Virus record (IMG/VR): IMGVR_UViG_2974682767_000001
Coordinates: 5,898-69,897 of that record
DNA length: 64,000 nt
Origin: a virus
Taxonomy: Duplodnaviria; Caudoviricetes
Direction: 5' to 3' (one strand)
The notes beneath the pieces are model-generated. The model searched no databases, had not been told where the DNA came from, and saw only the letters and a program-made list of their open reading frames with translations. The position numbers and the translations under genes were made by a program. Shown here one piece after another: positions 2,672 to 63,994 of this stretch (the stretch's first letter is position 1; each line of letters begins with the position of its first letter).

Positions 2672-2727
2672 GGCGGGCCATTCCCGCCGAACAAGAACGA
2701 CAATACCGTAAAACTCGGGATTGTCAA
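2672..2727 (-). promoter_or_regulatory. conserved promoter cassette (TTGACA-16-TATTGT plus stem)
   Basis: TTGACA ATCCCGAGTTTTACGG TATTGT, then GGCGGG-AATGG-CCCGCC. Confidence 0.85.
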
Positions 2728-2747
2728 ACCCAGCTCGCCAGGAGTTT

Positions 2748-2767
2748 GCACACCCGTCGTCTACGGT
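2748..2767 (+). promoter_or_regulatory. candidate GCAC-N10-TAnnnT promoter for the capsid gene
   Basis: GCAC acccgtcgtc TACGGT; same geometry at four other structural/lysis genes. Confidence 0.55.
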
Positions 2768-2854
2768 TCGGCAGCAGAGGGAACCTGCCCGGTTGTGTAC
2801 CGAGGGACGCTCACCGCAGACCAACGAGTTAGTGACCGAACCGAGGAGTTCGCA

Positions 2855-4726
2855 GTGACCATCCTGACGCCGACGGCCCCGGCCCGTCGCATCATCCGCC
2901 TCCACGGCGTGGGCCAGTTCACCGCCGCCGTCGGGTTCCAGATGCCCGACGCGGACGCCATCGCCGCCATGAGCGTGGCCGAGCTGGACGCCCTGCTGGA
3001 GGCCGCACGCGCCGAGGCGCATGTGTTCGAGGCACAGCACGCCGCTGGCCGCACCCTGTCCGCCGACGACATCAGCGCGCTGCGTGCGCTCGTCGGTGAG
3101 GGCGAGGCCATCGACACCCTGGAGGCCGCGCGGGCAACCGCCGTCGCCGCCGAGGCCGACCACAGCGCCGAGCTGGGCGACCTGCTGTCCCGTGCCGCCG
3201 GTCGGCGCGCACCCGAGGCACCGGCTGGCACCCCAGCCAACGGTGGCCCCGAGGGCGAGCAGAACGACGACGAGGACGGCAACGCCGACGGCGCGACCGA
3301 CACCGGCCAGGCCGGTACCGGCGAGCAGCCGCCCGCCGCGTCCGCGCCGGGTGACGCCGCACCGCAGACCGATGCCGTGGCCGCGAGCGCGGGCACGACC
3401 GGCGCGCAGCGCGGTGTCAATTTCGGCAACACCGGCACCGACGCCCCGCCCGCTGGCGGGGGCGATGCGCCCGAGCCGGGCTGGGAACTGAACCCCAGCG
3501 TTCCCGGCTACACCTCGGGCCAGTCGCGCGTCGGGTTCGCGGGCATCGCCCAGCGACTCGATGCCATCCGGCCCGGCAGCCGTGCCGCGCGCAACGGCAA
3601 GCCGCGCACGATGGACGGCCAGTCGTTCACTGCGCAGGTGGTCGCCGCGCTGTCCCGCGACATGCCGGTGGTGGACGACCCGCACGCGCTGGTCGCCGCC
3701 ATCAACACCGCCACCAGCCAGGTGAACGGCCAGCGCGTCACCGCGCAGGCGCTCACGGCTGCCGGTGGCTGGTGCGCGCCGTCGGAACAGCTCTACGACT
3801 TCTGCGATGTGCCGGACGCGACTGACCTGCTGTCGCTGCCGGAAATCGCCATCAACCGGGGCGGCGTCCGCTGGCCGCGCGAACCCGACCTGTCCGGCAT
3901 CTTCGAGGACTTCGAGTGGTTCTTTACGGAACCCGAGCTGGAGGCCACCGACGCCGAGGGCAACCCCACCGCCGTCAAGACGTGCGTGGAGGTCCCGTGC
4001 CCCGAGGACTTCGATGAGATCCGTCTCAACGCGGTCGGCTGGTGCGTGGAGGCGGGCATCCTCCAGGAGCAGGGCTGGCCCGAGCTGATCGAGTGGTTCA
4101 TGCGCTCGCTGACGCAGGAGCACCTGCGGGCGCTGTCCCGCCGGTCCATCCTCAACATCGTCGCCGGTTCGGGTGCCGCCAAGGTCATCCCGCCCGCCTC
4201 GGTGCTGGGGTCGGTCGCCTCGGTGCTCAACAGCCTCGCGCTGGTCGCCACGAACATCCGCCTCAAGCGGGGTCTGTCGCGCACGGCGACCATCGAGGGC
4301 ATCGCGCCGTCGTGGTTCTTCGAGGTCCTGCGCGCTGACCTGGCGTTCCGCGAGGGCACCGACACGTTCGCCGTCACCGACGCCCAGATTCTCGGGTGGC
4401 TGACGGCGCGCAACATCGCGCTCCAGTTCGTGGGTGACTGGCAGACCCGTTCGGCGGGGCTGCCCGGTCACATGGACACCCTCAAGTGGCCGACCACGGT
4501 GGACATCGTGATGTACCCGGCGGGCACCTGGTTCCGTTCGATGTCCAACGTCATCGAGCTGGGCGTCATGTACCCCAAGGAACAGCTCCAGGTCAACCGC
4601 TTCACCCGCATGTTCACCGAGGACGCCATCGCGGTGGGCAAGCGGTGCGGTGAGTCCGCCCTGGTGCGGGTCCCGCTGGACGTGAACGGTGCCATCGGCG
4701 AGCGGCTGGCAGCCAGCAACGCCTAA
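2855..4726 (+). CDS. major capsid protein with N-terminal fused scaffold region
   Basis: GAGGAG RBS before GTG 2855; acidic Ala-rich helical/low-complexity N-terminal half followed by a ~320 aa shell domain starting near AAGGWCAPSEQLYD; position after protease. Confidence 0.85.
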   Translation: MTILTPTAPARRIIRLHGVGQFTAAVGFQMPDADAIAAMSVAELDALLEAARAEAHVFEAQHAAGRTLSADDISALRALVGEGEAIDTLEAARATAVAAEADHSAELGDLLSRAAGRRAPEAPAGTPANGGPEGEQNDDEDGNADGATDTGQAGTGEQPPAASAPGDAAPQTDAVAASAGTTGAQRGVNFGNTGTDAPPAGGGDAPEPGWELNPSVPGYTSGQSRVGFAGIAQRLDAIRPGSRAARNGKPRTMDGQSFTAQVVAALSRDMPVVDDPHALVAAINTATSQVNGQRVTAQALTAAGGWCAPSEQLYDFCDVPDATDLLSLPEIAINRGGVRWPREPDLSGIFEDFEWFFTEPELEATDAEGNPTAVKTCVEVPCPEDFDEIRLNAVGWCVEAGILQEQGWPELIEWFMRSLTQEHLRALSRRSILNIVAGSGAAKVIPPASVLGSVASVLNSLALVATNIRLKRGLSRTATIEGIAPSWFFEVLRADLAFREGTDTFAVTDAQILGWLTARNIALQFVGDWQTRSAGLPGHMDTLKWPTTVDIVMYPAGTWFRSMSNVIELGVMYPKEQLQVNRFTRMFTEDAIAVGKRCGESALVRVPLDVNGAIGERLAASNA

Positions 4727-4826
4727 GCGCGCCGCGTAGCAGACTGGAGGCGGTAATCGTGGTCAACCCGAGGCCGACCACGATTGCCGCCTCCTCCACG
4801 TTCACCCCCAGGAGGGACCGACCGAC

Positions 4827-5621
4827 ATGACCGCCCCCGTTCTCGATGCCGTGCAGTTCACCGCGCCGCCGCTGAACCCCGCCGTTCCCGGCCTGTTCGC
4901 CGCGACCGACTGGCAGAACGACCCAGACAATCGGTTCCTCCACGGTGTCGTCATCCGTGGGGCGAACTACGGCGGCGACGAGGCCGCAGGCGTGTGGCAT
5001 GCGCCCTGGTGCGCGCCGCCGCCCATCGACCAGGATGAGCGCAAGTTCGGCGAGCGCCCCGACATCCACGACCGTTTCGACCCCATCACCGTGTGGGCAT
5101 ACGACGAGTGCGACCTGACCGAGCCGTCCCGGCGCGAGGTCGAGGCACGCGCGGCGCAAATCCTGCGGCTGGAGGAACAGCCGATGGTGGAGCGCGAGTT
5201 CGCCGCCCGGCTGCTGCTGGACGCTGGCGACCCCGACGTGGCCGACGCCACCGGCATCGAGACTCGGCCCAACCTCAAGGCGGCGGTGGCCTACCTGGAG
5301 GGCGAGATCGCCAAGACGAACACGATGGCGTTTCTGCACGTCGCCGCCGACCTGGTGGCGACCGAGGCCGGGCTGTTCGTCAAGTCCGGCACCCAGCGGG
5401 TCAGCCCGTCCGGCCATACGTGGATCATCGGCGGCGGCTACGTGGACGGCCTGGAGAACGTCATCGTGGCCACGTCGCAGCCGTTCGGCTGGCGGGACGC
5501 GCCGACCACGCGGACGGCCATTGACGAGCGCCACAATCTCTACGCTGCCGTTGCGGAGCGTAGCGTCACCATCGGTTACGAGGCACTGATTGCCGCCGTC
5601 GCCGTCGTCCCGGCACCGTAG
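4827..5621 (+). CDS. putative minor capsid/decoration protein
   Basis: Directly follows the capsid gene; GGAGG RBS; 264 aa. Confidence 0.6.
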   Translation: MTAPVLDAVQFTAPPLNPAVPGLFAATDWQNDPDNRFLHGVVIRGANYGGDEAAGVWHAPWCAPPPIDQDERKFGERPDIHDRFDPITVWAYDECDLTEPSRREVEARAAQILRLEEQPMVEREFAARLLLDAGDPDVADATGIETRPNLKAAVAYLEGEIAKTNTMAFLHVAADLVATEAGLFVKSGTQRVSPSGHTWIIGGGYVDGLENVIVATSQPFGWRDAPTTRTAIDERHNLYAAVAERSVTIGYEALIAAVAVVPAP

Positions 5622-5634
5622 GAGGAACAGGACC

Positions 5635-10948: not shown

Positions 10949-10972
10949 GTATCCCGAGCTGTCCGGTAGAGT
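10945..10972 (+). promoter_or_regulatory. spacer-palindrome promoter family member upstream of tail chaperone
   Basis: GTGAGT ATCCCGAGCTGTCCGG TAGAGT. Confidence 0.6.
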
Positions 10973-50439: not shown

Positions 50440-50461
50440 CCCGACGATTTCGGGTTAGCAT
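50432..50461 (+). promoter_or_regulatory. promoter with perfect palindrome CTAACCCGA-N5-TCGGGTTAG
   Basis: GTGACT-18-TAGCAT; ATG 7 nt downstream. Confidence 0.65.
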
Positions 50462-50468
50462 GATGACC

Positions 50469-50726
50469 ATGAGTACCCGTAGCCGCACCCGCATCGCCTC
50501 GCCGGGCAAGGTCCTGACCGTGCTGCTGCCCATCAAAATCGCCCCTGACCAGCGGCAACGCTTCAAGGTCAAGGCGGCGCAGCACGGCAAGACATACGCC
50601 GAGATGCTGCAAACGTGGATGGACCAGGACGACGCCCGGCTGGAGCGAGCGCAGCGGGCGCAGGCGCATCCGCTCCACCGACCCAACGAGGCCAAGAGCA
50701 TTTACCCAGGAGGCGGCACCCGATGA
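50469..50726 (+). CDS. ribbon-helix-helix DNA-binding protein
   Basis: VLLPIKIAPDQRQRFKVKAAQHGKTYAEML. Confidence 0.75.
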   Translation: MSTRSRTRIASPGKVLTVLLPIKIAPDQRQRFKVKAAQHGKTYAEMLQTWMDQDDARLERAQRAQAHPLHRPNEAKSIYPGGGTR

Positions 50727-54150: not shown

Positions 54151-54242
54151 CCCCGCACTGCTGGGCGGCTGTGCTCATCTCCTGCCTCGCCCTCGGGTTC
54201 GCCATCGCCGCGTTCTCGCTGGCCCTGGCGGCGATGCCATGA
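54147..54242 (+). CDS. 31-aa single-TM peptide
   Basis: ATGA overlaps both ends; AGGAGG RBS. Confidence 0.55.
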   Translation: MTPHCWAAVLISCLALGFAIAAFSLALAAMP

Positions 54243-54781
54243 CCTCGGCGGACATCCCCAAGTGGCAGCCCGACGAGCTGCTGGTACCGGCCATCCTGGC
54301 GGGCAGCCCCACCACGATGGACGACCTGACGCTGGCTGACCAGGCGTGGGTCGTGCTCCAGCTCAAGGACCTCGGCCACACCGCCGAGTACACCGCCGAA
54401 CGCCTCGGGTGCTCGGTGCGGCTGGTGCGGGCGCGCATCAGCGACGACCTCGGCCAGGTCATGCGGCGATACATGGACACCGCCGAGCATTTCGACCGCG
54501 AGCACGCGATGGCCCACAGCGAGGTCCAACGCCTGGCCCGCGCCCTCGGCGAGGCCGAGCGCGACCGGGACCGATACCTCGGCGAGCGCAACCGGCTCAT
54601 CGACCGGGCGATGTCCGGCGAGGGCGGGCCGGTGTTCCGGTGCGGGTGCCCGCAGACTCGATACAACACCTACGTGGCCCCCAAGACGGGCAAGCGAGGG
54701 TGTCGGCATCACCGCACCCTCGCCCAGCAGCGTTACCGCGAGCGACGGGCCGGGGCGCGGCGCACGCCGGTCACGACGTAG
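54239..54781 (+). CDS. HTH protein with coiled coil and C-terminal Cys/His motif
   Basis: GHTAEYTAERLGCSVRLVRAR; CGC...NTY...GCRHHR. Confidence 0.7.
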   Translation: MTSADIPKWQPDELLVPAILAGSPTTMDDLTLADQAWVVLQLKDLGHTAEYTAERLGCSVRLVRARISDDLGQVMRRYMDTAEHFDREHAMAHSEVQRLARALGEAERDRDRYLGERNRLIDRAMSGEGGPVFRCGCPQTRYNTYVAPKTGKRGCRHHRTLAQQRYRERRAGARRTPVTT

Positions 54782-54984
54782 GCGCTGGCCTGGTCGCCGT
54801 TGTGGCAGTAGCCAACGCCCCACTTGGCCTCATAGCCCTTGGCGAATCGCACCATTGCGCGGGGTCCCTCGATGGCGGCGGCAGCCTTGTCGGCGGCGGT
54901 CACGGTGACCTTGCCGCCGGTACGGCCTCCATTCATGGTGAACGTGACGACGAACTGGGTGGCGGGGCTGGTCTGCGTGGTCAT
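54733..54984 (-). CDS. hypothetical protein (leaderless, family promoter)
   Basis: TATTGT 7 nt upstream of ATG. Confidence 0.75.
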   Translation of the reverse strand: MTTQTSPATQFVVTFTMNGGRTGGKVTVTAADKAAAAIEGPRAMVRFAKGYEAKWGVGYCHNGDQASAYVVTGVRRAPARRSR

Positions 54985-54991
54985 GCAGATG

Positions 54992-55020
54992 ACAATACCG
55001 TAGAAGTCGGGAAACTACAA
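54992..55020 (-). promoter_or_regulatory. conserved promoter, stem-less leaderless variant
   Basis: TTGTAG TTTCCCGACTTCTACGG TATTGT. Confidence 0.75.
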
Positions 55021-55028
55021 CCCGAAAC

Positions 55029-55073
55029 GAGAACACCCCCGACCTGGTGGCCGGGGGTGTCGGGGGTGTTCTC
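55029..55073 (-). terminator. intrinsic terminator
   Basis: Perfect 15-bp arms GAGAACACCCCCGAC/GTCGGGGGTGTTCTC followed by GTTT on minus strand. Confidence 0.8.
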
Positions 55074-55079
55074 GGTGTC

Positions 55080-55253
55080 TCAGACGCGCCGCCCGTTGTG
55101 GGCCAGGTTGAACGCGATGACCTCGTTGAGGTGGGCGGTGGCTGCCTCCTCGGTGGGGCCGTAGCCGCTGGCGCTGGCACCGTGCTCGGTGATGGTGGCG
55201 CGGACGCGGGCGTCGGCGGGGCTGAAACGGTCGGTGGTGAAAACGATGTCCAT
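55080..55253 (-). CDS. 57-aa hypothetical protein (below ORF track cutoff)
   Basis: MDIVFTTDRFSPADARVRATITEHG...; between a family promoter and a terminator. Confidence 0.75.
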   Translation of the reverse strand: MDIVFTTDRFSPADARVRATITEHGASASGYGPTEEAATAHLNEVIAFNLAHNGRRV

Positions 55254-55280
55254 GAACGTCTCGATTCTCTATTTAGGTCC

Positions 55281-55335
55281 GGCGGGTCTGTCCCGCCTAC
55301 AAGAACCACAATACCGTATAAGTCGGGATTGTCAA
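55281..55335 (-). promoter_or_regulatory. conserved promoter cassette
   Basis: TTGACA ATCCCGACTTATACGG TATTGT, then GGCGGG-ACAGA-CCCGCC. Confidence 0.85.
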
Positions 55336-55344
55336 ACCCGGCGC

Positions 55345-55364
55345 GCACCCTCGGGGCATAGCCT
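55345..55364 (+). promoter_or_regulatory. candidate GCAC-N10-TAnnnT leaderless promoter
   Basis: GCAC cctcggggca TAGCCT; ATG 6 nt downstream. Confidence 0.6.
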
Positions 55365-55370
55365 GACGGC

Positions 55371-55670
55371 ATGGCATCACGCGGCGGACGTTCCAGCGGC
55401 TCACTCAAGGGCGGGCGCAAGTCGGTGGCCCGGCGCGGCCACGGCGGACCCCGACTCAACCGACGGCTCGGCGGTCATGCGACGTTCGCGCGCTCGGGCA
55501 CCACGACCCCATACGGGCCGGGCACGCCGAGCGTGAAGCGCCGCGACGTGTACGACGCGCTGCGCCGCAAGGGGTACAGCAAGGAAAAGGCAGCCCGCAT
55601 CGCCAACGCCACGGCCAACGGCACCAACAGCGGCAACCGAGGGCGCAAGGGTCCGCGCGGACGCCGCTGA
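55371..55670 (+). CDS. very basic Arg/Gly/Lys-rich protein
   Basis: VYDALRRKGYSKEKAARIANA core flanked by RG-rich tails. Confidence 0.75.
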   Translation: MASRGGRSSGSLKGGRKSVARRGHGGPRLNRRLGGHATFARSGTTTPYGPGTPSVKRRDVYDALRRKGYSKEKAARIANATANGTNSGNRGRKGPRGRR

Positions 55671-55685
55671 GTCATCACCGGGTCA

Positions 55686-56405
55686 TCACAACCCGTAGCC
55701 GTTCAGCATCTCGCGGGCGTCGGCCTCGGCCTGCTCGTCGTCCTCGGTGTCGCAGCACATCGCGCAGACGATGGCCGGGTCCCCGTGGTTCCCGCGCCGC
55801 CCGTCGCACTCCACCGGGCGCTCGGTGTGGAACGCATCGAACTCGGCGAATATCCCCTCCAGGCTGGGTTCGGTGGGCCAGCGCACCGGCACCGTGGCCA
55901 CGATGGGCACCAGCGCCGCGCCAGGTGCCTCGGCGACGGCCTCCAGCAGCTCGGCCACGCCGGTCGCGGGCTGCTCGGGCAGCGTCCCGTCCACCGTCCG
56001 GCAGTCGCGGCAGCGGTACAGCCCGGCCTCGGTGTAGGCCATCAGGCGGCGGTTGGGCGTGCGGTTGCACCCCTGGCACCAGTCGTAGGTCTGGCCGTCG
56101 CCGCGCCAGGGCGTGTCCAGCTCCAGGATGGCGCGAGGGACCAGCGGGCGGCATGAGCATCCCGGCGTATCGCACAGCTCGGCGTGGCCGGGCGCAGGCG
56201 TCACCGGGGCCGGGCGGCGTGGGGTGTCCGCCGTCGGCCAGGACCGGCCCACGTCGGCGACGAACGCCTGGTACGCGCTCGCCGCCTCGCGGGCGACCTC
56301 GGCGCGGATGCGGGTGCGGTCGTGGGTGTACTGGAACACCCCCGCCGCACCGGCCAGCGCCCCGGCCCCGCCGATCAGTTGCAATATCAGCTCGGTCGTC
56401 ACCAC
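55686..56405 (-). CDS. N-terminal TM protein with Cys-rich segments; N-terminus paralogous to 7625..7957
   Basis: LILQLIGGAGALAG; several CxxC. Confidence 0.7.
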   Translation of the reverse strand: MVTTELILQLIGGAGALAGAAGVFQYTHDRTRIRAEVAREAASAYQAFVADVGRSWPTADTPRRPAPVTPAPGHAELCDTPGCSCRPLVPRAILELDTPWRGDGQTYDWCQGCNRTPNRRLMAYTEAGLYRCRDCRTVDGTLPEQPATGVAELLEAVAEAPGAALVPIVATVPVRWPTEPSLEGIFAEFDAFHTERPVECDGRRGNHGDPAIVCAMCCDTEDDEQAEADAREMLNGYGL

Positions 56406-56794
56406 TCCACCTCCACGACGGTGCAGCCGACGGCGTGGCCGTTTCGGCGGCTGAACCAGAACTCAACGCCGCACGTCTTGCACATCCCGTCCTCGGTGAA
56501 CGGGTCGGACTCGGCCCGCTGCTCGGCGCGTTCCCGTGGGCCGGACTTGTGCGAGCACGTCGCGCACTGCGGGCGGATGTTGGACCGCACGTAGCGCCCG
56601 CCCTTGTAGCCGGGCACGATGCGGTCGCTGACCACCTCGTCCTCGGTGAGCAGCTTGCCGCACTCCCAACACGGCACCTTGACGCCATCGCCGCCGAACC
56701 CGGCGCGCTCGCTGACCAGCCACGCGCGGCGCGCCCGGCGGTCGTAGCTGTTGCCTCGCTTGTCGTCGCCCGTGAACTGGCGGGACACCCCCAT
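56399..56794 (-). CDS. HNH endonuclease-like protein
   Basis: CWECG...DRIVPGYKGG.Y..SNIRPQCATCS. Confidence 0.8.
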   Translation of the reverse strand: MGVSRQFTGDDKRGNSYDRRARRAWLVSERAGFGGDGVKVPCWECGKLLTEDEVVSDRIVPGYKGGRYVRSNIRPQCATCSHKSGPRERAEQRAESDPFTEDGMCKTCGVEFWFSRRNGHAVGCTVVEVEW

Positions 56795-56967
56795 CAGCGC
56801 ACCTCCTCGCGGTCGTGCTGCGGGGCGCACAGGTCGGCGCGGCGGTGCATTGGCTGCCAGCACGCCGGGCATTGCCACAGGTCGGGGTACATCGGGTCCG
56901 GCGTCGTCAGCTTGGTGCCCGACCCGATGCACGGCACCCGGTACCGGCGGCGTCTCCAGCGTGGCAT
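56794..56967 (-). CDS. small Cys-rich protein
   Basis: Coupled overlaps. Confidence 0.65.
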   Translation of the reverse strand: MPRWRRRRYRVPCIGSGTKLTTPDPMYPDLWQCPACWQPMHRRADLCAPQHDREEVR

Positions 56968-57134
56968 CAGTCCAGCCTCCCATCGGTGGCGCTGGGCGGG
57001 TCGAACACCAGCCGCCAGCCCTGCGGCGTGGCGAGCACGACCCAGTGCCAGCGCGGTGCCCACTCGGGGCAGCGGATGGCCACGTCGGCGTCGAACAGCG
57101 CCCGCACGCCCTCGTAGGTCGGCATCGCGGTCAC
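56967..57134 (-). CDS. 55-aa hypothetical protein (below ORF track cutoff)
   Basis: GTGA overlap; MTAMPTYEGVRALFDADVAIRCPEW... Confidence 0.65.
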   Translation of the reverse strand: MTAMPTYEGVRALFDADVAIRCPEWAPRWHWVVLATPQGWRLVFDPPSATDGRLD

Positions 57135-57349
57135 TCCACCGTCCCGTCGTAGGTGAACCGCCCGAACCAGGTGCGGGACTTCACGTAGCGGTGTTTGAGG
57201 ATGGGCACCTCGCGGTCGCCGGTCACGTCGTCCCAGATGTCCGGCGGGGCGGCGTACTGGGCGATGGTGATGGCCGACAGCGTGTCCGGCACCTCGCGGC
57301 GCTCGCCGTCCAGCGGGCCACCGAACAGGACCACCTCCACCGTGCTCAC
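57131..57349 (-). CDS. hypothetical protein
   Basis: LFGGPLDGE motif; GTGA overlap. Confidence 0.7.
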   Translation of the reverse strand: MSTVEVVLFGGPLDGERREVPDTLSAITIAQYAAPPDIWDDVTGDREVPILKHRYVKSRTWFGRFTYDGTVE

Positions 57350-57552
57350 CTCGGCACCGTCCCGGCTCGGCGTCGGCGGGCGTCCAGGCTGGCGCACGTC
57401 GGCGTGTGGTCCTCGTCGTCGTGGGTGTTGCAACACCGCCGGATGGCCCCGCGCGCCGTCTCGGTGGGCACGGGCGCGCCGCAGATGACGCACGACGGCC
57501 ACCCGAACCCGCCCGAGGGGTCGGCGTAGTAGCAGCGGTGTCCGGCGGTCAT
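57346..57552 (-). CDS. small Cys/His-rich protein
   Basis: ATGA overlap. Confidence 0.6.
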   Translation of the reverse strand: MTAGHRCYYADPSGGFGWPSCVICGAPVPTETARGAIRRCCNTHDDEDHTPTCASLDARRRRAGTVPR

Positions 57553-57971
57553 CGTCGGCCCGGCCTGGTCAGGTTGGTGGCGCACGTCCCCGGCTCGGGC
57601 TGCATCCGGTACACGTCCCCGGTGAAGTGGCCGACGTAGACCATGCCGCCGGGGTACTGACGGCGCGCACCCTGCTCGGGGCGGCGGTGCCGACCGGCGT
57701 AGTTCCAGTGGCTCACCGGGCGGGGTATCCGCATGTGGAACAGCAGCACCTCGCCGTCGCGGGTGAACCGACGCCAGGGAATCGGCCCGGTCACCGTGGT
57801 GTAGCCGTCGCGGGCGGTGATGTTGCGCTCGGCGAACATCAGCTCCATGTCGTGGCGCGGGGCGCGGTGCTTGGCCCGCTGGTGGGCGGGTTCGCGCGAG
57901 GTCCCCGTCCAGTGCCGTCCCTCGTCGCCGTAGCCGTACCGGCTGGAGAACGTCCGGCGGTCGGCCCTCAT
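57549..57971 (-). CDS. hypothetical protein
   Basis: ATGA overlap. Confidence 0.65.
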   Translation of the reverse strand: MRADRRTFSSRYGYGDEGRHWTGTSREPAHQRAKHRAPRHDMELMFAERNITARDGYTTVTGPIPWRRFTRDGEVLLFHMRIPRPVSHWNYAGRHRRPEQGARRQYPGGMVYVGHFTGDVYRMQPEPGTCATNLTRPGRR

Positions 57972-58249
57972 CGGTCGCACACTCCAGGGCGGTGGACCAG
58001 GAAACAGTCCAGGCACACGACCTCGCCGGGGTGGACCTCCAGCTCGGCGGCGGTGATGGTGTCGGCCTGCGTCGTCTTGCCCGCCCAGCCCTCGCCCGGC
58101 TCGCGCGGGTCGAACGGGCCGTTTCCGGCGTGCTGGTCGTCATGCCAGTGGGCAATGGCCTCCAGGCTGGCCGGGTCCCCCTCCTCGCCGAACAGGGCGA
58201 GGAGGTCGGCCTGGCCCTCGCACACGCCGCAGCGCAGCCCCGGCATCAC
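57968..58249 (-). CDS. hypothetical protein with CxxC motifs
   Basis: GTGA overlap. Confidence 0.65.
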   Translation of the reverse strand: MMPGLRCGVCEGQADLLALFGEEGDPASLEAIAHWHDDQHAGNGPFDPREPGEGWAGKTTQADTITAAELEVHPGEVVCLDCFLVHRPGVCDR

Positions 58250-58596
58250 CGCGTGCCGCCCTCGGTCAGGTCCATGCCGACGCCGAGCACGCCGTCCCGC
58301 AGGTCGGCGTCGGTCGGGTCGCCGACGGCGCAGGCGGGGCACGACGAGCGCGGGGCGCTGTGGCCGGGCGCGGCGACACCGACCGGCAGGCCGTCGCGGT
58401 CCTCGGTGGTGCGGTCGCGGGCCATGCGCTCGCGGCTGGTGCGCCCGAGGCGGTCCAGGACGCTGTTGCGGTTGGCCTCGCGCTGTTCCTCCAGCAGCTC
58501 GGTCAGTTTGCCGTCGATGGACTTGAGGGTGGACAGGAACTCGCCGACGGTGGCCGGGATGTCCAGGTTGCCGATGTTGATGCCGGGCAGCTTCAT
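58246..58596 (-). CDS. hypothetical protein
   Basis: ATGA overlap. Confidence 0.7.
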   Translation of the reverse strand: MKLPGINIGNLDIPATVGEFLSTLKSIDGKLTELLEEQREANRNSVLDRLGRTSRERMARDRTTEDRDGLPVGVAAPGHSAPRSSCPACAVGDPTDADLRDGVLGVGMDLTEGGTR

Positions 58597-58868
58597 GGTG
58601 CGTAACGTCCTTTGCTGTCGATGTTGAGTCCGCCCCGCCGTAGCCGGGCGATGTCGTTGGCGCGGGCGCGCCAATCGCTGGGGGTCCCGGCGATGCCGCC
58701 GAGGTATTCGCCGTCCAGGTAGACCTTGTAGTGTCCATCCTTGCCACGGTGGGGCCGGACTTCACCGCCCGCCGCGCGGATGGCGTCCAGCAGCTTGCGG
58801 GTGTCCTTGTTGGACCCCCGGCACCCGGCGGCGCGCTTGCTGCCGGGCTGGGGTTCGGGGCGGGTCAT
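58593..58868 (-). CDS. HicA-like toxin/RNA-binding protein
   Basis: RKLLDAIRAAGGEVR...GHYKVYLDG...IAGTPSDWRA...RLRR.G. Confidence 0.65.
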   Translation of the reverse strand: MTRPEPQPGSKRAAGCRGSNKDTRKLLDAIRAAGGEVRPHRGKDGHYKVYLDGEYLGGIAGTPSDWRARANDIARLRRGGLNIDSKGRYAP

Positions 58869-59143
58869 TGGCCCGTGGCCTGCCACTCGCCGGTACGCCG
58901 CGAGCGCATCGCCAGCGTCTCGCCGCTGATGCGGTAGACGCTGCCGAGGACCCCGGTGTCCACGATGACGACCTCGGGCGCATAGGGCGGGTGTCCGAGG
59001 CGGTGCTGGGGCGGTCGGATGCCCTCGGCGGCGAGCACGGCCAGCCACTCCTCGCTGGTGCCGCTGAACTGGTCCGAGTCCGGCTGGTTGGCGTCCTCCC
59101 ACGTCTCGCCGTCGATGCGGACCCACTCGGGCTGGTGCGTCAT
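58865..59143 (-). CDS. hypothetical protein
   Basis: ATGA overlap. Confidence 0.7.
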   Translation of the reverse strand: MTHQPEWVRIDGETWEDANQPDSDQFSGTSEEWLAVLAAEGIRPPQHRLGHPPYAPEVVIVDTGVLGSVYRISGETLAMRSRRTGEWQATGQ

Positions 59144-59364
59144 CGGGCACCTCCACGCGCGAGGTAGCCCCGGTAGACCATGACGGCCAGGTCAATGTCG
59201 CTGTTGGCGGCGACCTCGGCCAGGCTGCGGATGTCGCCGTTGTCGAACTGCTCGGGGACGAACGTGCCGACCGCGACGGCGCAGTGGACGTAGTGCGGGA
59301 ACTCATGGGCGTCCCGCGTGAGGCAGGTGCAACGGTCGTCGTCGCCTGCGTTCCAGTGGTTCAT
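59140..59364 (-). CDS. hypothetical protein driven by cassette
   Basis: GAGGAGG RBS directly after conserved stem. Confidence 0.8.
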   Translation of the reverse strand: MNHWNAGDDDRCTCLTRDAHEFPHYVHCAVAVGTFVPEQFDNGDIRSLAEVAANSDIDLAVMVYRGYLARGGAR

Positions 59365-59377
59365 CGTGACCTCCTCG

Positions 59378-59432
59378 GGCGGGTCGTTCCCGCCTACACC
59401 AAGGACAATACCGTACAGCTCGGGATAGTCAA
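59378..59432 (-). promoter_or_regulatory. conserved promoter cassette
   Basis: TTGACT ATCCCGAGCTGTACGG TATTGT, then GGCGGG-AACGA-CCCGCC. Confidence 0.85.
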
Positions 59433-59446
59433 GCCTTGCACGCTGG

Positions 59447-59680
59447 TTATTTCTGGGTGATGACCCGGCCAGCGCGCGGCAAAGGTGCCGACTTGGCGGG
59501 TACCGACTTGGCGGGTGTCGGCCTCGCCGGTACCGCGTGCTTGCGGGCCACCCCGTCCTTGCGCGGGGCCAGGCGCTTGCCGCAGACGGCGCAGGCCACG
59601 GCGGCGGCGTAGCGGACACCCCCGTGGGGTCCCGTCCACCAGACGGGCAATGTCCGCTCGCCGACGCCGGGGCACTGCAC
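59447..59680 (-). CDS. small basic Cys-containing protein
   Basis: Start overlaps upstream TAG; CAVCGK...RKH. Confidence 0.6.
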   Translation of the reverse strand: MQCPGVGERTLPVWWTGPHGGVRYAAAVACAVCGKRLAPRKDGVARKHAVPARPTPAKSVPAKSAPLPRAGRVITQK

Positions 59681-59934
59681 TACTCGCCCCCGTGCTCGGC
59701 AGCCGACCCGCCGAACCCGCCGTTGTGGAACCCGCCGTGTTTGGCTTTGGCCGAGAACAGCGGGCGGCGCGAGGACTGCCACGCCACGGGCATGAACCCG
59801 CCCGCCGACATGAAGCTGTCCAGCCCCTCGAACAGCTCGGCACCGCGCTCCACGTCGGCCTGGCTGATGCGCTGCTCGCTGCGCACCCTGGCGACCAGGG
59901 CACGCAGCTCGCGCAGCGTCTCGTCGGGGTCCAC
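59680..59934 (-). CDS. conserved actinophage hypothetical protein
   Basis: MDPDETL...FEGLDSFMSAGGFMPVAW. Confidence 0.7.
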   Translation of the reverse strand: MDPDETLRELRALVARVRSEQRISQADVERGAELFEGLDSFMSAGGFMPVAWQSSRRPLFSAKAKHGGFHNGGFGGSAAEHGGE

Positions 59935-60443
59935 TACGGCCTGTCCTGCGCGTCGTAGACCGGCACGGTGCGCCGCACGCGCCCGTAGCGCGCCATCTCC
60001 TCGGCCACGGGCGGCTCGGCCCCGGCTGGCATCAAGGACCGGCTGTCGGTGAACTGGTACAGCGTGTGCCAATTGGCCTCGCCGATGAAGTTGAGCAGGC
60101 CGGGCCAGTTGAAACGGCGCGTCTCCTGGCCGGTGACGGCCCACCGCGTCACGCGGGTGCGGCCACGGCCCTCCTGCCAGCCAATCGCGGCGTAGGTGTA
60201 GACCCGCCCCGACTCGTACCGGCTGAACATGACGAACTCGGGCAGACCGGCCTCCACGGCGGGTTCCTGCGGACGGCGTGCCGCCTCCTCGGCCTGGCGG
60301 GCGGCGAGCGCCTGCTGTGCCAGCTCGTCGGCGATGGCCCGCGCCCGGCGCGCCTCGGCGTCGATTTCGGCGGACGTGCGCACGCCGGACAGCCGCGAGG
60401 GGTTCGGCAGCGCGTCGGCCTCGGGCGTTTCGGAAAATGACAT
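59934..60443 (-). CDS. hypothetical protein
   Basis: AGGAGG RBS with CACAACC element. Confidence 0.8.
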   Translation of the reverse strand: MSFSETPEADALPNPSRLSGVRTSAEIDAEARRARAIADELAQQALAARQAEEAARRPQEPAVEAGLPEFVMFSRYESGRVYTYAAIGWQEGRGRTRVTRWAVTGQETRRFNWPGLLNFIGEANWHTLYQFTDSRSLMPAGAEPPVAEEMARYGRVRRTVPVYDAQDRP

Positions 60444-60580
60444 GGGTACCTCCTGGTGGTTGTGGTTGTCGTGCGCTCCTCGCGGTGGTCCCGACCCACC
60501 CCCGCCACCCTGCGCGGGGCGGCGGCGCTCCATGCGCTACGAGGACTGCGCGCGTTGGCCGGTCGCGCCCCCGGTGCAGC

Positions 60581-60964
60581 CTAGTCGGGCAGCTTGGCCC
60601 CCTCGATGTGGTTGACCCAGTTGATGACCTTGAGAACGTCCAGGCCGTTGGCGTTGTCCAGGTCGATGACCGCCACGCGGTCGGTGGTGCCGTAGGACAG
60701 GTTGGCCACGGTGCCCGCCACCCAGTTCGGGGTCAGCTTGTGCCAGGTGACGCCGCTGCGCTGGTCGTTCTCGTTGCCCTCAAACGGCGGGCGGATGCTG
60801 CCGTCGGTCAGGCCGATCATCATGTCGAACAGGATGGCCTCGCCGGACTCCACCCGGTCGCTGCTGCTCATCTTGCCGGGAATGGTCGGGTAGGTGCTGC
60901 CGCCGTCGGTGCTGGGTCCCTTGCGGTCGGGGGTGCCGGTGACGATGGCGATGGTGGCGGACAT
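60581..60964 (-). CDS. hypothetical protein driven by cassette
   Basis: GAGGAG RBS. Confidence 0.85.
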   Translation of the reverse strand: MSATIAIVTGTPDRKGPSTDGGSTYPTIPGKMSSSDRVESGEAILFDMMIGLTDGSIRPPFEGNENDQRSGVTWHKLTPNWVAGTVANLSYGTTDRVAVIDLDNANGLDVLKVINWVNHIEGAKLPD

Positions 60965-60984
60965 GGGGTTCTCCTCGCGGTCGG

Positions 60985-61039
60985 GGCGGGTCGTTCCCGC
61001 CTACAAGAAAGACAATACCGTATCGGTCGGGATTGTCAA
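60985..61039 (-). promoter_or_regulatory. conserved promoter cassette
   Basis: TTGACA ATCCCGACCGATACGG TATTGT, then GGCGGG-AACGA-CCCGCC. Confidence 0.85.
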
Positions 61040-61058
61040 ATCGCCTGGTTGCAAGCGG

Positions 61059-61211
61059 TCACAGCGTGCCCATCAGCCAGCCGACGGGCAGCGCCAGGAA
61101 CGGCGCGACGACCAGAATGGCCCCCATCTCGGTCAGGAACGAGCTGCCCCAGCGGTCGCCGAGCAGGACGAGCACCAGGCCGATGAGCACCAGCACGCCG
61201 AGACTCACCAT
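61059..61211 (-). CDS. small 2-TM membrane protein
   Basis: Hydrophobic ~50 aa. Confidence 0.6.
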   Translation of the reverse strand: MVSLGVLVLIGLVLVLLGDRWGSSFLTEMGAILVVAPFLALPVGWLMGTL

Positions 61212-61465
61212 TGCCGAGGCACCCCCACCACGATGTCCTGGCCGAGACGCCGGGCGTCGGCGGCGATGGCCAGCATGTCCCGTTGCCACGGGGCCAGCCC
61301 CGTGCCGCCCAGCGCCTCGTATGTGGTCGCCAGCTCCAGCCAGCGGCGGCGCTCGCGCTCGGGGGCCAGGATGGCGTCCAGCTCGCCGAGGGACCACCGT
61401 GTGGCGAGCCGGGCGACCCTGCGCGCCCGCAGGCGGTGGCGCTGGAGGCGTAGACGGCGCATCAC
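61205..61465 (-). CDS. hypothetical Arg-rich protein
   Basis: GTGA overlap. Confidence 0.6.
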   Translation of the reverse strand: MMRRLRLQRHRLRARRVARLATRWSLGELDAILAPERERRRWLELATTYEALGGTGLAPWQRDMLAIAADARRLGQDIVVGVPRQW

Positions 61466-61815
61466 GGGACCACCAGCCGGAACTCGCTGCGGAGGAGGCA
61501 ATGGCGCTTGCCGCGCGTGGTGCGCAGGCAGAACAGCGGCGTGCCGTCGCCGGTCGTGGTGGCCATCGTGATGGTGGCCCGCATCCCGGCGTACTCCACG
61601 ACATCGCCCACGACGACATCGGCGCGGAACGGGTCGCCCACACGCGCCAGGATGGCCTCAAACGCCGCGTGCTGGGCGCTGGCCTTGGTCGTGTGCCCGG
61701 CGGTCGCCACGCACGGCCCGAGGGCGCGCCAGGCGGGTCCGGTGACCGGCCCACGCTCCACGGTGTACGCCCCGGCGCGGTACTGGCTGTCCTGGTCGCC
61801 CCGGTGCCACTTCAT
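61462..61815 (-). CDS. hypothetical protein
   Basis: ATGA overlap. Confidence 0.7.
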   Translation of the reverse strand: MKWHRGDQDSQYRAGAYTVERGPVTGPAWRALGPCVATAGHTTKASAQHAAFEAILARVGDPFRADVVVGDVVEYAGMRATITMATTTGDGTPLFCLRTTRGKRHCLLRSEFRLVVP

Positions 61816-62054
61816 CGGGCCACGCCGTCCTGATAGAACACGTCCCGGCCCTGCTGGCTGTAGTACGCCCTGATGCGGGCCGATAGCGTGGCGATGGGCC
61901 GGTTGAGTGCCTTGGCGGCGTCGTGCTCGCCGGACGCGGTGAGGATGGCCTGCGCGGTGGCGAGGGTCTGCCGCGTCTTGCTCGCGCGGTTCACCCCCGA
62001 CCGGCTGGTGATGGGTTTGGCCACATCGGCGACGTGGCTGGCGGTGATGCTCAT
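61812..62054 (-). CDS. hypothetical protein
   Basis: AGGAGG RBS with CACAACC element. Confidence 0.75.
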   Translation of the reverse strand: MSITASHVADVAKPITSRSGVNRASKTRQTLATAQAILTASGEHDAAKALNRPIATLSARIRAYYSQQGRDVFYQDGVAR

Positions 62055-62078
62055 GGGGGTCCTCCTGGTGGTTGTGGG

Positions 62079-62252
62079 TTACAGCAGTCGGCTGATGCCG
62101 GTGGGGATGCGGGCCGAGCCGCCACACCCGCACAGCGTGCGGGCGGCGTACTCGGGCGAGGGGCAGCAGGCGTTTGCGTGGAACTCGTCCCACCACTCCT
62201 CGCGGGTCATGGCCTCGGCGAACGCCTGGCCGAGGTTGGCCGGGCGCGCCAT
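62079..62252 (-). CDS. small Cys-containing protein
   Basis: Start overlaps upstream TGA. Confidence 0.65.
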   Translation of the reverse strand: MARPANLGQAFAEAMTREEWWDEFHANACCPSPEYAARTLCGCGGSARIPTGISRLL

Positions 62253-62455
62253 CAGCCGCACGCCTTGGCCATGCGCAGGTACTCCCACCCCTGCGCGATG
62301 AGGTCGGCCTGGATGTCCTCGCCAGCGAACAGCTCGGCGCGGTCGGCCATGTCCTGCGCCGCCTGGAGCAGGATGGACTTGCGCTCGGCGAGCTGCACCC
62401 GCGCCTCGGCGGCGTTGCGGGCGGTGAGCCGGGGGAGAGTGAGCGTGGTGTCCAT
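62252..62455 (-). CDS. small hypothetical protein driven by cassette
   Basis: GAGGAGG RBS. Confidence 0.75.
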   Translation of the reverse strand: MDTTLTLPRLTARNAAEARVQLAERKSILLQAAQDMADRAELFAGEDIQADLIAQGWEYLRMAKACG

Positions 62456-62478
62456 GTGGACCTCCTCGGGGTCAGGGC

Positions 62479-62537
62479 GGCGGGGCGGTCCCGCCTGCTG
62501 ATGAGAACTACTTTACCGTAAAACTCGGGATTGTCAA
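62479..62537 (-). promoter_or_regulatory. conserved promoter cassette
   Basis: TTGACA ATCCCGAGTTTTACGG TAAAGT, then GGCGGG-ACCGC-CCCGCC. Confidence 0.85.
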
Positions 62538-62671
62538 ACCGGCACCACCACGCTGCCGGTCATCTTGTGTTCGCGCTGGTAGGCGCGTGCCTCGTCGTAG
62601 CTGTCGAACGGCCCGTAATCGCCCATGTCCCACTCGATGACGTGGGGGCGGGCGTCCGCCGCGCCGGTCAT
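62534..62671 (-). CDS. 45-aa hypothetical protein (below ORF track cutoff)
   Basis: ATGA overlap; MTGAADARPHVIEWDMGDYGPFDSYDEA...; stop lies in next -35. Confidence 0.65.
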   Translation of the reverse strand: MTGAADARPHVIEWDMGDYGPFDSYDEARAYQREHKMTGSVVVPV

Positions 62672-62940
62672 CGGCGTGCGGCGTAGCGCCGCCAGTTGCC
62701 GTTACCGCTGCCCTGGACGAACATGCCCCGCGCGTCCAGGTAGTCCAGGACGCTGCGCACGTCGTGGCTGTCGGCCTTGACGATGCGGGCGAGCTGGCTG
62801 GGGCTGTAGTCGCCGCCGCGCTCGGTCAGGGCGGCGTCGATCTTGCCGACGAGCCGGTTGCCCTCGGGGGTCAGCAGGCTGTAGACGCGGCGTCCGCCGA
62901 TGACCTCCACCGGGCTGGTCTGGTCGATGACGTTGCTCAT
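62668..62940 (-). CDS. winged-helix-like DNA-binding protein
   Basis: YSPSQLARIVKADSHDVRSVLDYLDARG...WRRY. Confidence 0.7.
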   Translation of the reverse strand: MSNVIDQTSPVEVIGGRRVYSLLTPEGNRLVGKIDAALTERGGDYSPSQLARIVKADSHDVRSVLDYLDARGMFVQGSGNGNWRRYAARR

Positions 62941-62957
62941 GGTGTTCCTCCTGGTCC

Positions 62958-63013
62958 GGCGGGTCGTTCCCGCCTCACATGAACCACAATACCGTAAAAG
63001 TCGGGAAAGTCAA
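62958..63013 (-). promoter_or_regulatory. conserved promoter cassette
   Basis: TTGACT TTCCCGACTTTTACGG TATTGT, then GGCGGG-AACGA-CCCGCC. Confidence 0.85.
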
Positions 63014-63055
63014 ACCCTGGCCAGATTATGCGTCTGACCAGGGCCGACGAGTCGT

Positions 63056-63778
63056 CTACCGTGTCTGCGCGATGATCGAGAACCGCAGCCCGCAGACGTA
63101 GCGGCTGACGACCTTGTGCGGGCCGGGGTTCTTGCGCGGGTCCAGCTCGCGCACCTCGGCGGCGACATCCATGAGCGCGGTGGCGCGCTTGAACGCCCAC
63201 AGGTCGCCCTCGTTGGTGACGCTGCGGCCACGGGTCAGGTAGTCCGCCTCATCGCGCACGTACATCTTGAGGGCCGTCTGCGCGGCGGCGAGGTCGGTGC
63301 CCTGGTGGATGCTGACGTGGGCCATTGCGCGGTCCTCGTCGCTGGCCCGGCTGTTGTCGGTGTCCCGCGTGACGTAGAACGTGGTGACCGGCTCGGCCTT
63401 GGCCGGTGCCTCCAGGACCAGCCCGCCGTCGGCGGTGGGGGTGCCCTCGGCCAGGATCGCCTCGGCGGCGTCCACGTCGGCCTGCTCGGTCATCTCGGCC
63501 TCGGCGACAGCGGCGCGCAGCTCGGCCTCGGACACGACCGGCACCACGATGATCTCGAAAAACGTCTTGCCGTCGCAGTACGGGACGCCGACGCGCCACC
63601 GCTTGGATTCCTTGACGGCCAGGTCCTCGCGCCCGTTGAACGACAACTGGCCCCAGGTGGCCGTCTCGCGGGTGTCGCCGTGGAGGCACAGCACCGCGTG
63701 GGTGTAGACGCGGGCGGTGCCGCGCTTGATCTGGGTGCCGTCGGGGGCGGTGGCGATGAAGGTGGTTTTGGTGGCCAT
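63056..63778 (-). CDS. hypothetical protein driven by cassette
   Basis: AGGAGG RBS; 240 aa. Confidence 0.85.
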   Translation of the reverse strand: MATKTTFIATAPDGTQIKRGTARVYTHAVLCLHGDTRETATWGQLSFNGREDLAVKESKRWRVGVPYCDGKTFFEIIVVPVVSEAELRAAVAEAEMTEQADVDAAEAILAEGTPTADGGLVLEAPAKAEPVTTFYVTRDTDNSRASDEDRAMAHVSIHQGTDLAAAQTALKMYVRDEADYLTRGRSVTNEGDLWAFKRATALMDVAAEVRELDPRKNPGPHKVVSRYVCGLRFSIIAQTR

Positions 63779-63796
63779 GTCGGTCCTCCTGCTCGG

Positions 63797-63851
63797 GGCG
63801 GGTCGTTCCCGCCTACAAGAACCACAATACCGTAGAAGTCGGGAAAGTCAA
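63797..63851 (-). promoter_or_regulatory. conserved promoter cassette
   Basis: TTGACT TTCCCGACTTCTACGG TATTGT, then GGCGGG-AACGA-CCCGCC. Confidence 0.85.
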
Positions 63852-63928
63852 ACCCCAATTCCGCGCAGATTTCCTCCAGGTATTTCGGGGTCCCCTGGTA
63901 CCGACCCCGGCGTCCGGCTCTGGTGTCG

Positions 63929-63956
63929 AGAATACCGTAAAAGTCGGGAAAGTCAA
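63929..63956 (-). promoter_or_regulatory. conserved promoter, tandem upstream copy
   Basis: TTGACT TTCCCGACTTTTACGG TATTCT. Confidence 0.8.
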
Positions 63957-63966
63957 CCCCGTTCCC

Positions 63967-63994
63967 GCGAGTTTCCCGAACTGGGCGGTAGACT
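63967..63994 (+). promoter_or_regulatory. family-like promoter pointing out of the window
   Basis: GCGAGT TTCCCGAACTGGGCGG TAGACT, then 6 nt to window end. Confidence 0.5.

Follow-up and report, generated by a model that had tools for sequence, protein, structure and literature searches.

A CCG-N7-CGG dyad in the SigA-type promoters of a Cluster B mycobacteriophage as a candidate operator for a phage repressor

The DNA considered here, referred to as the window, is a stretch of 64,000 nucleotides (nt) from a virus of the class Caudoviricetes; it comprises bases 5898-69897 of the 69,897-bp IMG/VR record IMGVR_UViG_2974682767_000001, whose completeness is estimated at 99%, and its G+C content is about 70% throughout. 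The closest named relatives are Funsized, Rinkes and Knocker, which belong to the Cluster B mycobacteriophages (Bclasvirinae). The structural arm is ~80% identical to the nearest named relatives over the 64-72% that is covered, and in the right-hand 10 kb 11% is alignable, the right arms being mostly beyond alignment. The element in question is an inverted repeat, CCG-N7-CGG, that is located between the -35 and -10 boxes of promoters spread over the genome. An earlier note on this DNA had listed about 16 promoters with this repeat and read it as an operator through which one phage regulator coordinates early, replication and some structural genes. Each of these 16 sites was confirmed, and the genome adds a 17th beyond the window (Table 1). 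Gene calls are derived from open reading frames (ORFs) and the G+C content of third codon positions (GC3), and positions are those of the window unless the genome is named.

Promoter sites and their shared spacer motif

The 28-bp pattern TTGACW-N-TCCCGA-N4-TACGG-TATTGT is matched ten times with at most three mismatches, always on the minus strand, and is not matched in 100 shuffled sequences. The ten matches are the eight cassette sites described below together with 54992 and 63929, and they account for ten of the eleven minus-strand sites of the earlier note; the eleventh, 39434, is a weaker variant with about four mismatches by our own count and a good score against a weight matrix trained on nine of the listed sites. 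The five more degenerate sites that had been proposed (10954, 30004, 49331, 50441 and 63976) were each found as described. The composite CCG-N7-CGG-N0-2-TAnnnT is present at 17 places in the 69,897-bp genome, for which 100 Markov-1 simulations give an expectation of 1.2 ± 1.1, and WWC precedes the CCG in all 17. The bare repeat CCG-N7-CGG (175 observed, 120 ± 11 expected) is common in DNA of 70% G+C, and thus only the composite with a -10 box is informative.

The sites have the features of SigA promoters, namely a -35 near TTGACA, a -10 of the form TAnnnT and a 16-bp spacer; those that are leaderless keep TAnnnT and have a poor -35. A generic sigma-70 scan, which required at least 9 of 12 hexamer matches and a -10 whose second base is A and whose sixth is T, returned 11 promoter-like sites in 60 kb of the window, ten of them with the motif, at an expected background of about 0.6-1.1 sites per 20 kb. 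The motif is therefore co-extensive with the host-type promoters of the phage. Its assignment to early, replication and some structural genes was too narrow, as it is found at essentially every sigma-A-type promoter, including the leaderless promoter of the kinase and terminase genes. The excess of composite sites and the ten of eleven generic promoters speak for the interpretation as an operator.

Eight sites (2700, 31362, 55308, 59405, 61012, 62510, 62986 and 63824) have in common a unit of about 65 bp, the cassette, in which a G-rich stretch, TTGACW, a 16-bp spacer WT-CCCGA-N4-TA-CGG, TATTGT, a hairpin, a Shine-Dalgarno (SD) sequence and an ATG follow one another. The hairpin, GGCGGGA-N4-CCCGCC, lies about 10 nt past the -10 and the ATG 41-55 nt past it; the structure has a predicted energy of about -12 kcal/mol, with the ribosome-binding site unpaired. 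If transcription starts about 7 nt past the -10, the 5' end of the transcript and the hairpin would be separated by 3-5 nt, a placement that suggests a role as a 5'-end mRNA stabiliser. All Cluster B subclusters sampled (B1-B5) have the cassette together with its hairpin, and the copies of Cooper and Apex read AGCGGG...CCCGCT, having changed on both sides with the pairing kept. The 31362 promoter has an ortholog in every Cluster B genome examined. A blastn search of named phages with one 67-bp cassette yields single copies in Knocker, Funsized and Briakila, only single ones because the query is short. That the spacer dyad itself might act as an RNA hairpin in read-through transcripts was rejected on inspection, the stem being merely 3-5 bp with a 7-nt loop. 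The unit at 2344-2727 (-), whose Cys-rich ORF is antisense and lies between the protease and capsid genes, is moron-like; Funsized has a different small forward gene between protease and capsid and carries a cassette with two reverse genes elsewhere, at 19296-20128 of its record.

Six sites (genome 3068 and, in the window, 30004, 49331, 50441, 54992 and 63976) are leaderless, with no hairpin and an ATG 6-7 nt past the -10, a geometry that fits a start 6-8 nt past the -10. A look-up of sequencing runs for 54700-63990 returned no RNA run. Their -35 is poor and their inverted repeat is better, of the form CCCGA-N5-TCGGG and extending at the promoter of the ribbon-helix-helix (RHH) gene to a perfect palindrome of 23 bp (50436-50458). 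The arms measure 4-9 bp in the leaderless sites and 3 bp in the 11 main sites. These six promoters and the SD-led site 10954 are without the TTG of the -35 and keep the motif. The dyad of 30004 is contained in the final codons of the XRE gene, and the DUF7423 gene behind 49331 heads the leftward genes of the central divergent region, in an arrangement that is the same in Funsized and Cooper. Three sites belong to neither set: 63929; 39434, which precedes a helicase gene and has orthologs in Funsized, Knocker and Rinkes; and 10954, ahead of the tape-measure region. Two further dyads stand apart from the promoter spacers: that at 31391-31405 overlaps the upstream portion of the rightward lysin A promoter, and the orphan at 48962-48976 precedes the next leftward promoter-like sequence by about 10 bp.

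The 63976 site faces the end of the window, and the base that comes next after that end is the first of the ATG at genome position 1, which opens a P-loop kinase gene followed by a long ORF syntenic with the terminase gene of Funsized. In a related contig the corresponding promoter is continuous with the kinase gene, and the site is therefore taken to drive both the kinase gene and the long ORF. The part of the genome to the left of the window (genome 1-5897) thus begins at the kinase gene, and the left-end block of Funsized, ParB/QueF/DpdA/QueC/QueD/QueE/FolE (preQ0, deazaguanine DNA modification), is not found at the corresponding place. The idea that the GA of the half-sites carries a deazaguanine modification was dropped because the genome left end, the only part considered for a preQ0/DpdA cluster, starts at the kinase gene and has no space for one of the Funsized type.

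Table 1. Motif sites, related dyads and candidate regulator genes (window positions unless stated)
Feature	Position	Strand	Description
17th site, leaderless, outside the window	genome 3056-3068	-	Upstream of a gene syntenic with the Funsized RuvC-like resolvase gene
Cassette promoter	2700-2727	-	TTGACA, CCG-N7-CGG spacer, TATTGT; hairpin 2672-2688; 102-amino acid (aa) Cys-rich ORF 2344-2652
Rightward site	10954-10972	+	TCCCGA-N4-TCCGG, -10 TAGAGT; SD-led ATG 11001 of a 211-aa gene directly before the tape measure; kept in Funsized
Winged helix-turn-helix (HTH) gene, second candidate regulator	29783-29989	-	68 aa, phrog_597; MerR/RacA/Xis/BldC-like fold in model
Leaderless site (30004)	29997-30016	-	ACCCG-N7-CGGGT, -10 TAACAT; ATG 29989 of the 68-aa MerR/Xis-type winged-helix gene
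XRE gene, top candidate regulator	30000-30473	-	157 aa, Pfam HTH_31; Aca2 fold in model
Cassette promoter	31362-31389	-	Hairpin 31334-31350; DUF6011 gene 30548-31312, then XRE and winged-HTH genes on the same strand
Second dyad	31391-31405		CCCG-N7-CGGG, directly upstream of the 31362 -35; kept in this group and B4
Promoter variant	39434-39461	-	TAGACA, CCGA-N5-TCGG, TAAAGT; different leader; upstream of a 580-aa helicase gene
Orphan dyad	48962-48976		ACCCGA-N5-TCGGGG without adjacent -10; last codons of the DUF7423 gene
Leaderless site (49331)	49323-49343	-	TCCCGA-N5-TCGGGG, -10 TACTCT; ATG 49316 of the DUF7423 gene
Leaderless site (50441)	50436-50461	+	Perfect palindrome CTAACCCGA-N5-TCGGGTTAG over -10 TAGCAT; ATG 50469 of the RHH_10 gene
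RHH gene, third candidate regulator	50469-50726	+	RHH_10
Leaderless motif promoter	54992-55019	-	Degenerate -35; ATG 54984, 83-aa ORF 54733-54984
Cassette promoter	55308-55335	-	Hairpin 55281-55297; 57-aa ORF 55080-55253
Cassette promoter	59405-59432	-	Hairpin 59378-59394; ATG 59364
Cassette promoter	61012-61039	-	Hairpin 60985-61001; 127-aa ORF 60581-60964
Cassette promoter	62510-62537	-	-10 TAAAGT; hairpin 62479-62495; 67-aa ORF 62252-62455
Cassette promoter	62986-63013	-	Hairpin 62958-62974; 90-aa ORF 62668-62940
Cassette promoter	63824-63851	-	Hairpin 63797-63813; 240-aa ORF 63056-63778
Promoter copy without standard hairpin	63929-63956	-	Tandem, 105 bp upstream of the 63824 promoter
Rightward leaderless site	63976-63994	+	TCCCGA-N5-GCGG, -10 TAGACT; 6 nt from the window end

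An extended dyad and its distribution in relatives

The core is part of an extended dyad, AC-WWW-CCCG-N7-CGG(G/T)-WWW-GT, which spans the -35 to -10 region. In a comparison set of 52 sites from the present phage, Funsized, Knocker, Rinkes and contigs of IMG/VR sample 3300044899, the A located 5 nt before CCCG is found at all 52 sites and the base that follows it is C in 46, even where the TTG of the -35 is lost. When promoters of the present phage and its three nearest named relatives are picked by their -35 and hairpin alone, the repeat is in register in 20 of 21; about 25 of 30 positions are near-invariant in this set, three spacer positions are free, and GT closes the -10 in 20 promoters. 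The arms are thus conserved and the centre is free across copies as well as across relatives, including relatives with unalignable flanking DNA.

Further relatives were sampled with one genome each for subclusters B1 (Oline), B2 (Rosebush), B3 (Phaedrus) and B5 (Acadian) and two for B4 (Cooper and Apex), mostly over the right-hand 36-42 kb, and were scanned with the nine-site weight matrix and regular expressions. B1, B4, B5 and several metagenome contigs carry ACCCG-N7-CGGGT at the same place with variable centres; the inverted arms there reach 4-5 bp or more, and one B1 site has, by our own reading, perfect arms of 9 bp. Promoters with the repeat in register number 5 of 7 in B1, 8 of 8 in B4, 3 of 4 in B5 and 1 of 10 in B3, where the right block is mostly GTGG; in B2 there is none among 6. 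The expectation that the spacer is conserved in relatives is therefore borne out, as a dyad, for B1, B4, B5 and the metagenomic kin, while the dyad is degenerate in B3 and absent from B2. The promoter of the DUF6011 gene, which is divergent from lysin A and orthologous in all genomes, has a centre that differs from phage to phage between arms that persist.

The spacer measures by our own count 17 bp in B1 and 18 bp in B4. Between B1 and the present group, with its 16-bp spacer, the -10 hexamer is shifted by 1 nt and the outer GT stays fixed relative to CGG; because the GT keeps its distance from CGG as the hexamer moves, the constraint seems to track the dyad and not the polymerase register. 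The B1 phage Oline also has, at 61363-61394 (-) of its record, a leaderless TACCGA-N4-TACGG-TATTGT of the type of the present group among its B1-type promoters, which suggests that cassettes have been exchanged between subclusters. The Tsukamurella phage TPA2 (IMG/VR 651703110) keeps the XRE and 68-aa gene pair and the promoter-hairpin cassette with a spacer that is without CCCG/CGGG.

Beyond the cluster, the 28-bp composite gives 41 stretches in 596 Gb of prokaryote genomes, mostly single, against about 35 expected by chance on our own estimate. The 2.9 million viral contigs of IMG/VR hold 56 stretches, most of them several to a Cluster-B-like record of about 70 kb. A host regulon was considered and rejected on this distribution, near chance in prokaryotes and multi-copy in Cluster-B-like viral contigs, and the motif is by its occurrence a phage feature. 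The only repeated prokaryote matches are perfect palindromic repeats of Saprospiraceae, which together with those of Ohtaekwangia metagenome-assembled genomes (MAGs) match the pattern on both strands and form an unrelated repeat family. A lone match in a Mycobacterium sp. MAG (427-454) lies between two Xis-like HTH genes beside a tyrosine integrase gene; it is taken as probably due to chance because the flanking proteins are unrelated to the 68-aa protein of the phage. Exact matches to the 21-bp core in IMG/VR are mostly single, in contigs of 29-47% GC without cassette context, and were set aside, the relatives among them being the contigs of sample 3300044899 only.

Candidate DNA-binding proteins and other promoter elements

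Searches against Pfam and PHROG identify an XRE protein, a 68-aa DNA-binding protein and an RHH_10 protein, whose genes are served by the sites at 31362, 30004 and 50441, respectively. The XRE gene lies downstream of the 31362 cassette on the same strand, following the DUF6011 gene. The structural model of its product (predicted local distance difference test, pLDDT, 85) comprises an N-terminal HTH and a C-terminal dimerisation domain of the type of Aca2, a regulator of phage ZF40, and matches five Aca2 entries with Z scores of 10.2-11.0 and root-mean-square deviations of 2.4-2.8 Å over 103-108 residues. The alignment covers both domains (model residues ~27-148), HTH-only matches reaching a Z of about 6, at a sequence identity of ~19-20%. 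The recognition helix is Arg-rich and as such would suit G-rich half-sites. In a preprint on B1 phages the orthologous XRE protein is, independently of this work, named a putative repressor, and unstable lysogeny is reported.

The 68-aa protein is 71-96% identical across B1, B4, B5 and the present group, where other compared candidates mostly share ~40-55%. Its model (pLDDT 76) shows weak matches to MerR N-terminal domains, RacA, RdfS, Xis and BldC (Foldseek E 0.07-2.4). Phages with the canonical dyad have RPGRGW as the C-terminal tail of the protein, for which B2, B3 and TPA2, which have no dyad, have RPGRGNW; this tail and the β-strand of the RHH protein differ in B2, B3 and TPA2, which are also the most diverged genomes overall. 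The RHH promoter of Funsized, Knocker and Rinkes has GGTTA-N6-TAACC over the -10 and start (window counterpart 50454-50468), not the CCCG dyad, and the RHH protein may thus read that box instead. CTAACC is also found in the spacer of the promoter of the 49681 gene (49652-49658), and these boxes probably form an operator set of their own, which the RHH protein perhaps reads.

The earlier note had named seven candidate regulators, of which the XRE, winged-HTH and RHH proteins stay candidates. The proteins encoded at 36955 and 62668 are unlikely readers because no homologue was found in the compared portions of most motif-bearing relatives. Those at 52090 and 54239, larger proteins classed as DNA binding, give only weak HTH or sigma region 4 matches. 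The 180-aa product of 54239-54781 (+) is present in all nine relatives sampled, and its weak match to Sigma70_r4_2 (E 0.04) means that it could be a sigma-like or late-gene factor.

Three cassette promoters stand back-to-back with rightward GCAC-N10-TAnnnT sites, at 2748-2767, 31398-31420 and 55340-55370 (+), which precede the capsid gene, lysin A and a 99-aa ORF; the latter two have leaderless geometry. These sites look like a second, -35-less promoter class, possibly a late one. The sequence at 31392 (+) before lysin A was excluded from the motif class, as its -10, TACAGT, comes 6 nt later; it is one of the GCAC-N10-TAnnnT sites. In the central divergent intergenic region (49350-49460) a conserved promoter of the TTGACAAAATGGGG type is followed by an alternating GCGCGCACGCGCGC tract, an arrangement that is clear in Funsized (~23980-24100), Cooper (~26210-26320) and Oline (~25790-25900) and partial in Knocker, Phaedrus and Rosebush. 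This region may be the main early promoter or an origin.

Operator, promoter element or inherited cassette

It is proposed, at about even chances, that CCG-N7-CGG is the core of a dyad-symmetric operator of 15-25 bp for a dimeric phage repressor that would occlude both the -35 and the -10. The earlier idea of an operator for one phage regulator is thereby retained in so far as fixed arms, a free centre and copies outside spacers fit an operator, and is narrowed as regards its list of seven regulators, which was too wide. In favour of an operator are the persistence of the motif in -35-poor promoters, with the A before CCCG kept at every site compared, the copies outside spacers (31391-31405 and 48962-48976), and the position of the strongest dyads before DNA-binding genes themselves (30004 and 50441). 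Host RNA polymerase with SigA would read the promoters on naked incoming DNA. A dimeric DNA-binding protein encoded by the phage would then build up, occupy the dyad and block the polymerase at all ~17 promoters, its own among them, which would give negative feedback. What would follow is a shut-off of the motif genes or, in a carrier or unstable-lysogen state, silencing of the whole genome. The XRE protein would be the best candidate for this repressor, followed by the 68-aa winged-helix protein and the RHH protein.

Several observations weigh against this proposal. The dyad is largely lost in B3 and B2 despite the presence of XRE and winged-HTH homologues there, and the symmetry of the main family amounts to 3 bp per arm. 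The copies inside one genome are kin by descent, so that counts exaggerate their independence. The recognition helix of the XRE protein differs in Knocker and Rinkes despite the same promoter motif, and there is therefore no clean covariation of protein and DNA. The phage has no motif-free sigma-A-type promoter that could serve as an internal control, which makes the motif inseparable from the promoter class, and the motif also precedes the terminase operon, a poor fit to a shut-off of early genes only.

The conserved blocks might instead be an intrinsic part of the promoter that is contacted by the host RNA polymerase holoenzyme or by mycobacterial accessory factors, with the GG upstream of the -10 acting as an extended -10-like element and ACWWWCCCGA as a -35 extension that tunes strength or open-complex kinetics. 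We regard this, the main rival, as unlikely. It would account for the fixed position of the blocks relative to both the -35 and the -10 in every site, for their presence in all sigma-A-type promoters of the phage, for the B3 right block, which as GTGG before TATTGT resembles a TGn extended -10 more than a half-site, and for the conserved blocks that B2 retains without dyad symmetry. Inverted arms of 4-5 bp in B1, B4, B5 and the metagenomic kin are nevertheless unexpected for polymerase contact, and the leaderless sites drop the TTG, the part best read by SigA region 4, yet keep AC-WWW-CCCG. Moreover, the outer GT follows the dyad and not the -10 register, dyads also occur at a distance from any -10 box, and a polymerase contact that specifically recognises CCCG around -27 to -24 is not known to us.

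A different reader of the dyad is envisaged if the 68-aa MerR/Xis-type protein, possibly with the XRE protein, binds it as a modulator or two-way switch that damps the sigma-A-type promoters and aids the back-to-back 'late' promoters. This is improbable, the structural matches to MerR-type proteins being weak and the MerR coiled-coil dimerisation helix missing from the protein. The operators of the MerR family are GC-rich dyads within promoter spacers, and MerR-activated promoters have spacers of 19-20 bp, whereas those seen here have 16-18 bp. The 68-aa protein is all the same the best conserved regulator of the cluster, its own leaderless promoter bears a dyad with 5-bp arms, and the second dyad overlaps the lysin A promoter region. 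The correlation of the RPGRGW tail with the presence of the dyad also speaks for it; B2, B3 and TPA2 may form one clade, however, and the correlation may then reflect a single event. Still less probable, and in our view very unlikely, is a spacer without function, whose identity would reflect recent descent, the ~65-bp promoter-hairpin cassette travelling with morons and being kept uniform by recombination. Cassettes do flank small unrelated genes at positions that differ among relatives (the unit 2344-2727 is not there in Funsized), copies are more alike within a genome than between subclusters, and a B1 genome has one copy of the type of the present group. Homogenisation would not, though, leave three central positions free while fixing both flanks, and the same blocks are kept in genomes that are ~20% diverged in their best conserved genes as well as in non-cassette promoters with other leaders and no hairpin.

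No description of the motif was found in the full-text literature searched, two reviews that possibly cover Cluster B promoters being outside the search, which agrees with the earlier note, to whose author no description in this phage group was known; the B1 preprint notes only that the right end has ten or more high-scoring SigA-like promoters. The concept has precedents in the stoperators of Cluster A, the palindrome of Cluster O and the operators of anti-CRISPR-associated (Aca) proteins. Aca2 of phage ZF40 acts as a homodimer on its own strong phage promoter, which it represses via inverted repeats with 4-bp cores spaced by N6 or N8 (PMC6765145), very close to the CCCG-N7-CGGG found here. 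The likeness includes the Aca2 fold of the XRE model and would extend to a phage XRE-type homodimer, an early-firing promoter and autoregulation (PMC6765145). The cores differ, being TTCG/CGAA there and CCCG/CGGG here, as does the scale, one operon there and ~17 promoters genome-wide here. No anti-CRISPR (Acr) gene was identified in the present phage, in which no Acr search was made, and the gene upstream of the XRE gene encodes a DUF6011 protein.

In Cluster A, the repressor gp71 of L5 acts through many copies of one short motif genome-wide, one of which overlaps an early lytic promoter (PMC9262239). The stoperators are asymmetric, 13-14 bp long, mostly located in short intergenic regions in one orientation, and block elongation (PMC9262239), whereas the motif described here is symmetric and lies inside promoter spacers on both strands, and does not conform to an L5-type stoperator. 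Each Cluster O genome carries over 30 copies of a 17-bp palindrome, TGTTCGG-N3-CCGAACA, with invariant arms and a variable centre, and this multi-copy mycobacteriophage dyad occurs alongside 8-9 SigA-like promoters, some of them leaderless; its repeats are described as spread over the genome, between or inside genes, without being placed in promoter spacers, and differ in arms, spacing and sequence (PMC4351075).

The MerR family offers a further parallel, as the present phage has a GC-rich dyad between the -35 and -10 and encodes a MerR-type winged-helix protein. MerR promoters are activated through DNA distortion. Spacers of 16 bp here, and by our own count of 17-18 bp in B1 and B4, depart from those of MerR-activated promoters, and the 68-aa candidate is without the effector and coiled-coil parts. 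The conserved inverted repeats (CIRs) of Streptomyces phage phiC31 are multi-copy 17-bp inverted repeats at early promoters that are bound by repressor c, in a temperate phage with an integrase, and the Arc operator in the spacer of the P22 promoter Pant shows a small repressor bound between the -35 and the -10. The sequences and proteins of both systems are unrelated to those of the motif here.

A more far-reaching form of the operator proposal is put forward tentatively and is on the doubtful side. An Aca2-fold XRE dimer, perhaps with its 68-aa MerR-like neighbour, would read a dyad of ~25 bp that is identical with the SigA promoter DNA itself and whose mirror symmetry with the -35 flank would dictate even the -10 hexamer used (TATTGT here, TAAGTT in B1), and would switch the whole genome via ~17 promoters. 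If this is true, one protein flips the entire genome of a supposedly strictly lytic cluster between expression and silence, and such a single-protein switch would explain the unstable lysogeny of B1 phages.

With more than 350 isolates, Cluster B ranks among the two largest mycobacteriophage groups (PMC9262239), and no study of its gene regulation was found in the literature searched. Should the operator idea fail, the conserved blocks would indicate an unrecognised mycobacterial promoter element. The compact cassette of consensus promoter, 5' hairpin and ribosome-binding site is a possible repressible expression part for mycobacterial genetics. One operator in every host-type promoter provides a testable model for gene timing or silencing in Cluster B, and it bears on whether these phages are truly obligately lytic, which is relevant to the choice of phages for therapy.

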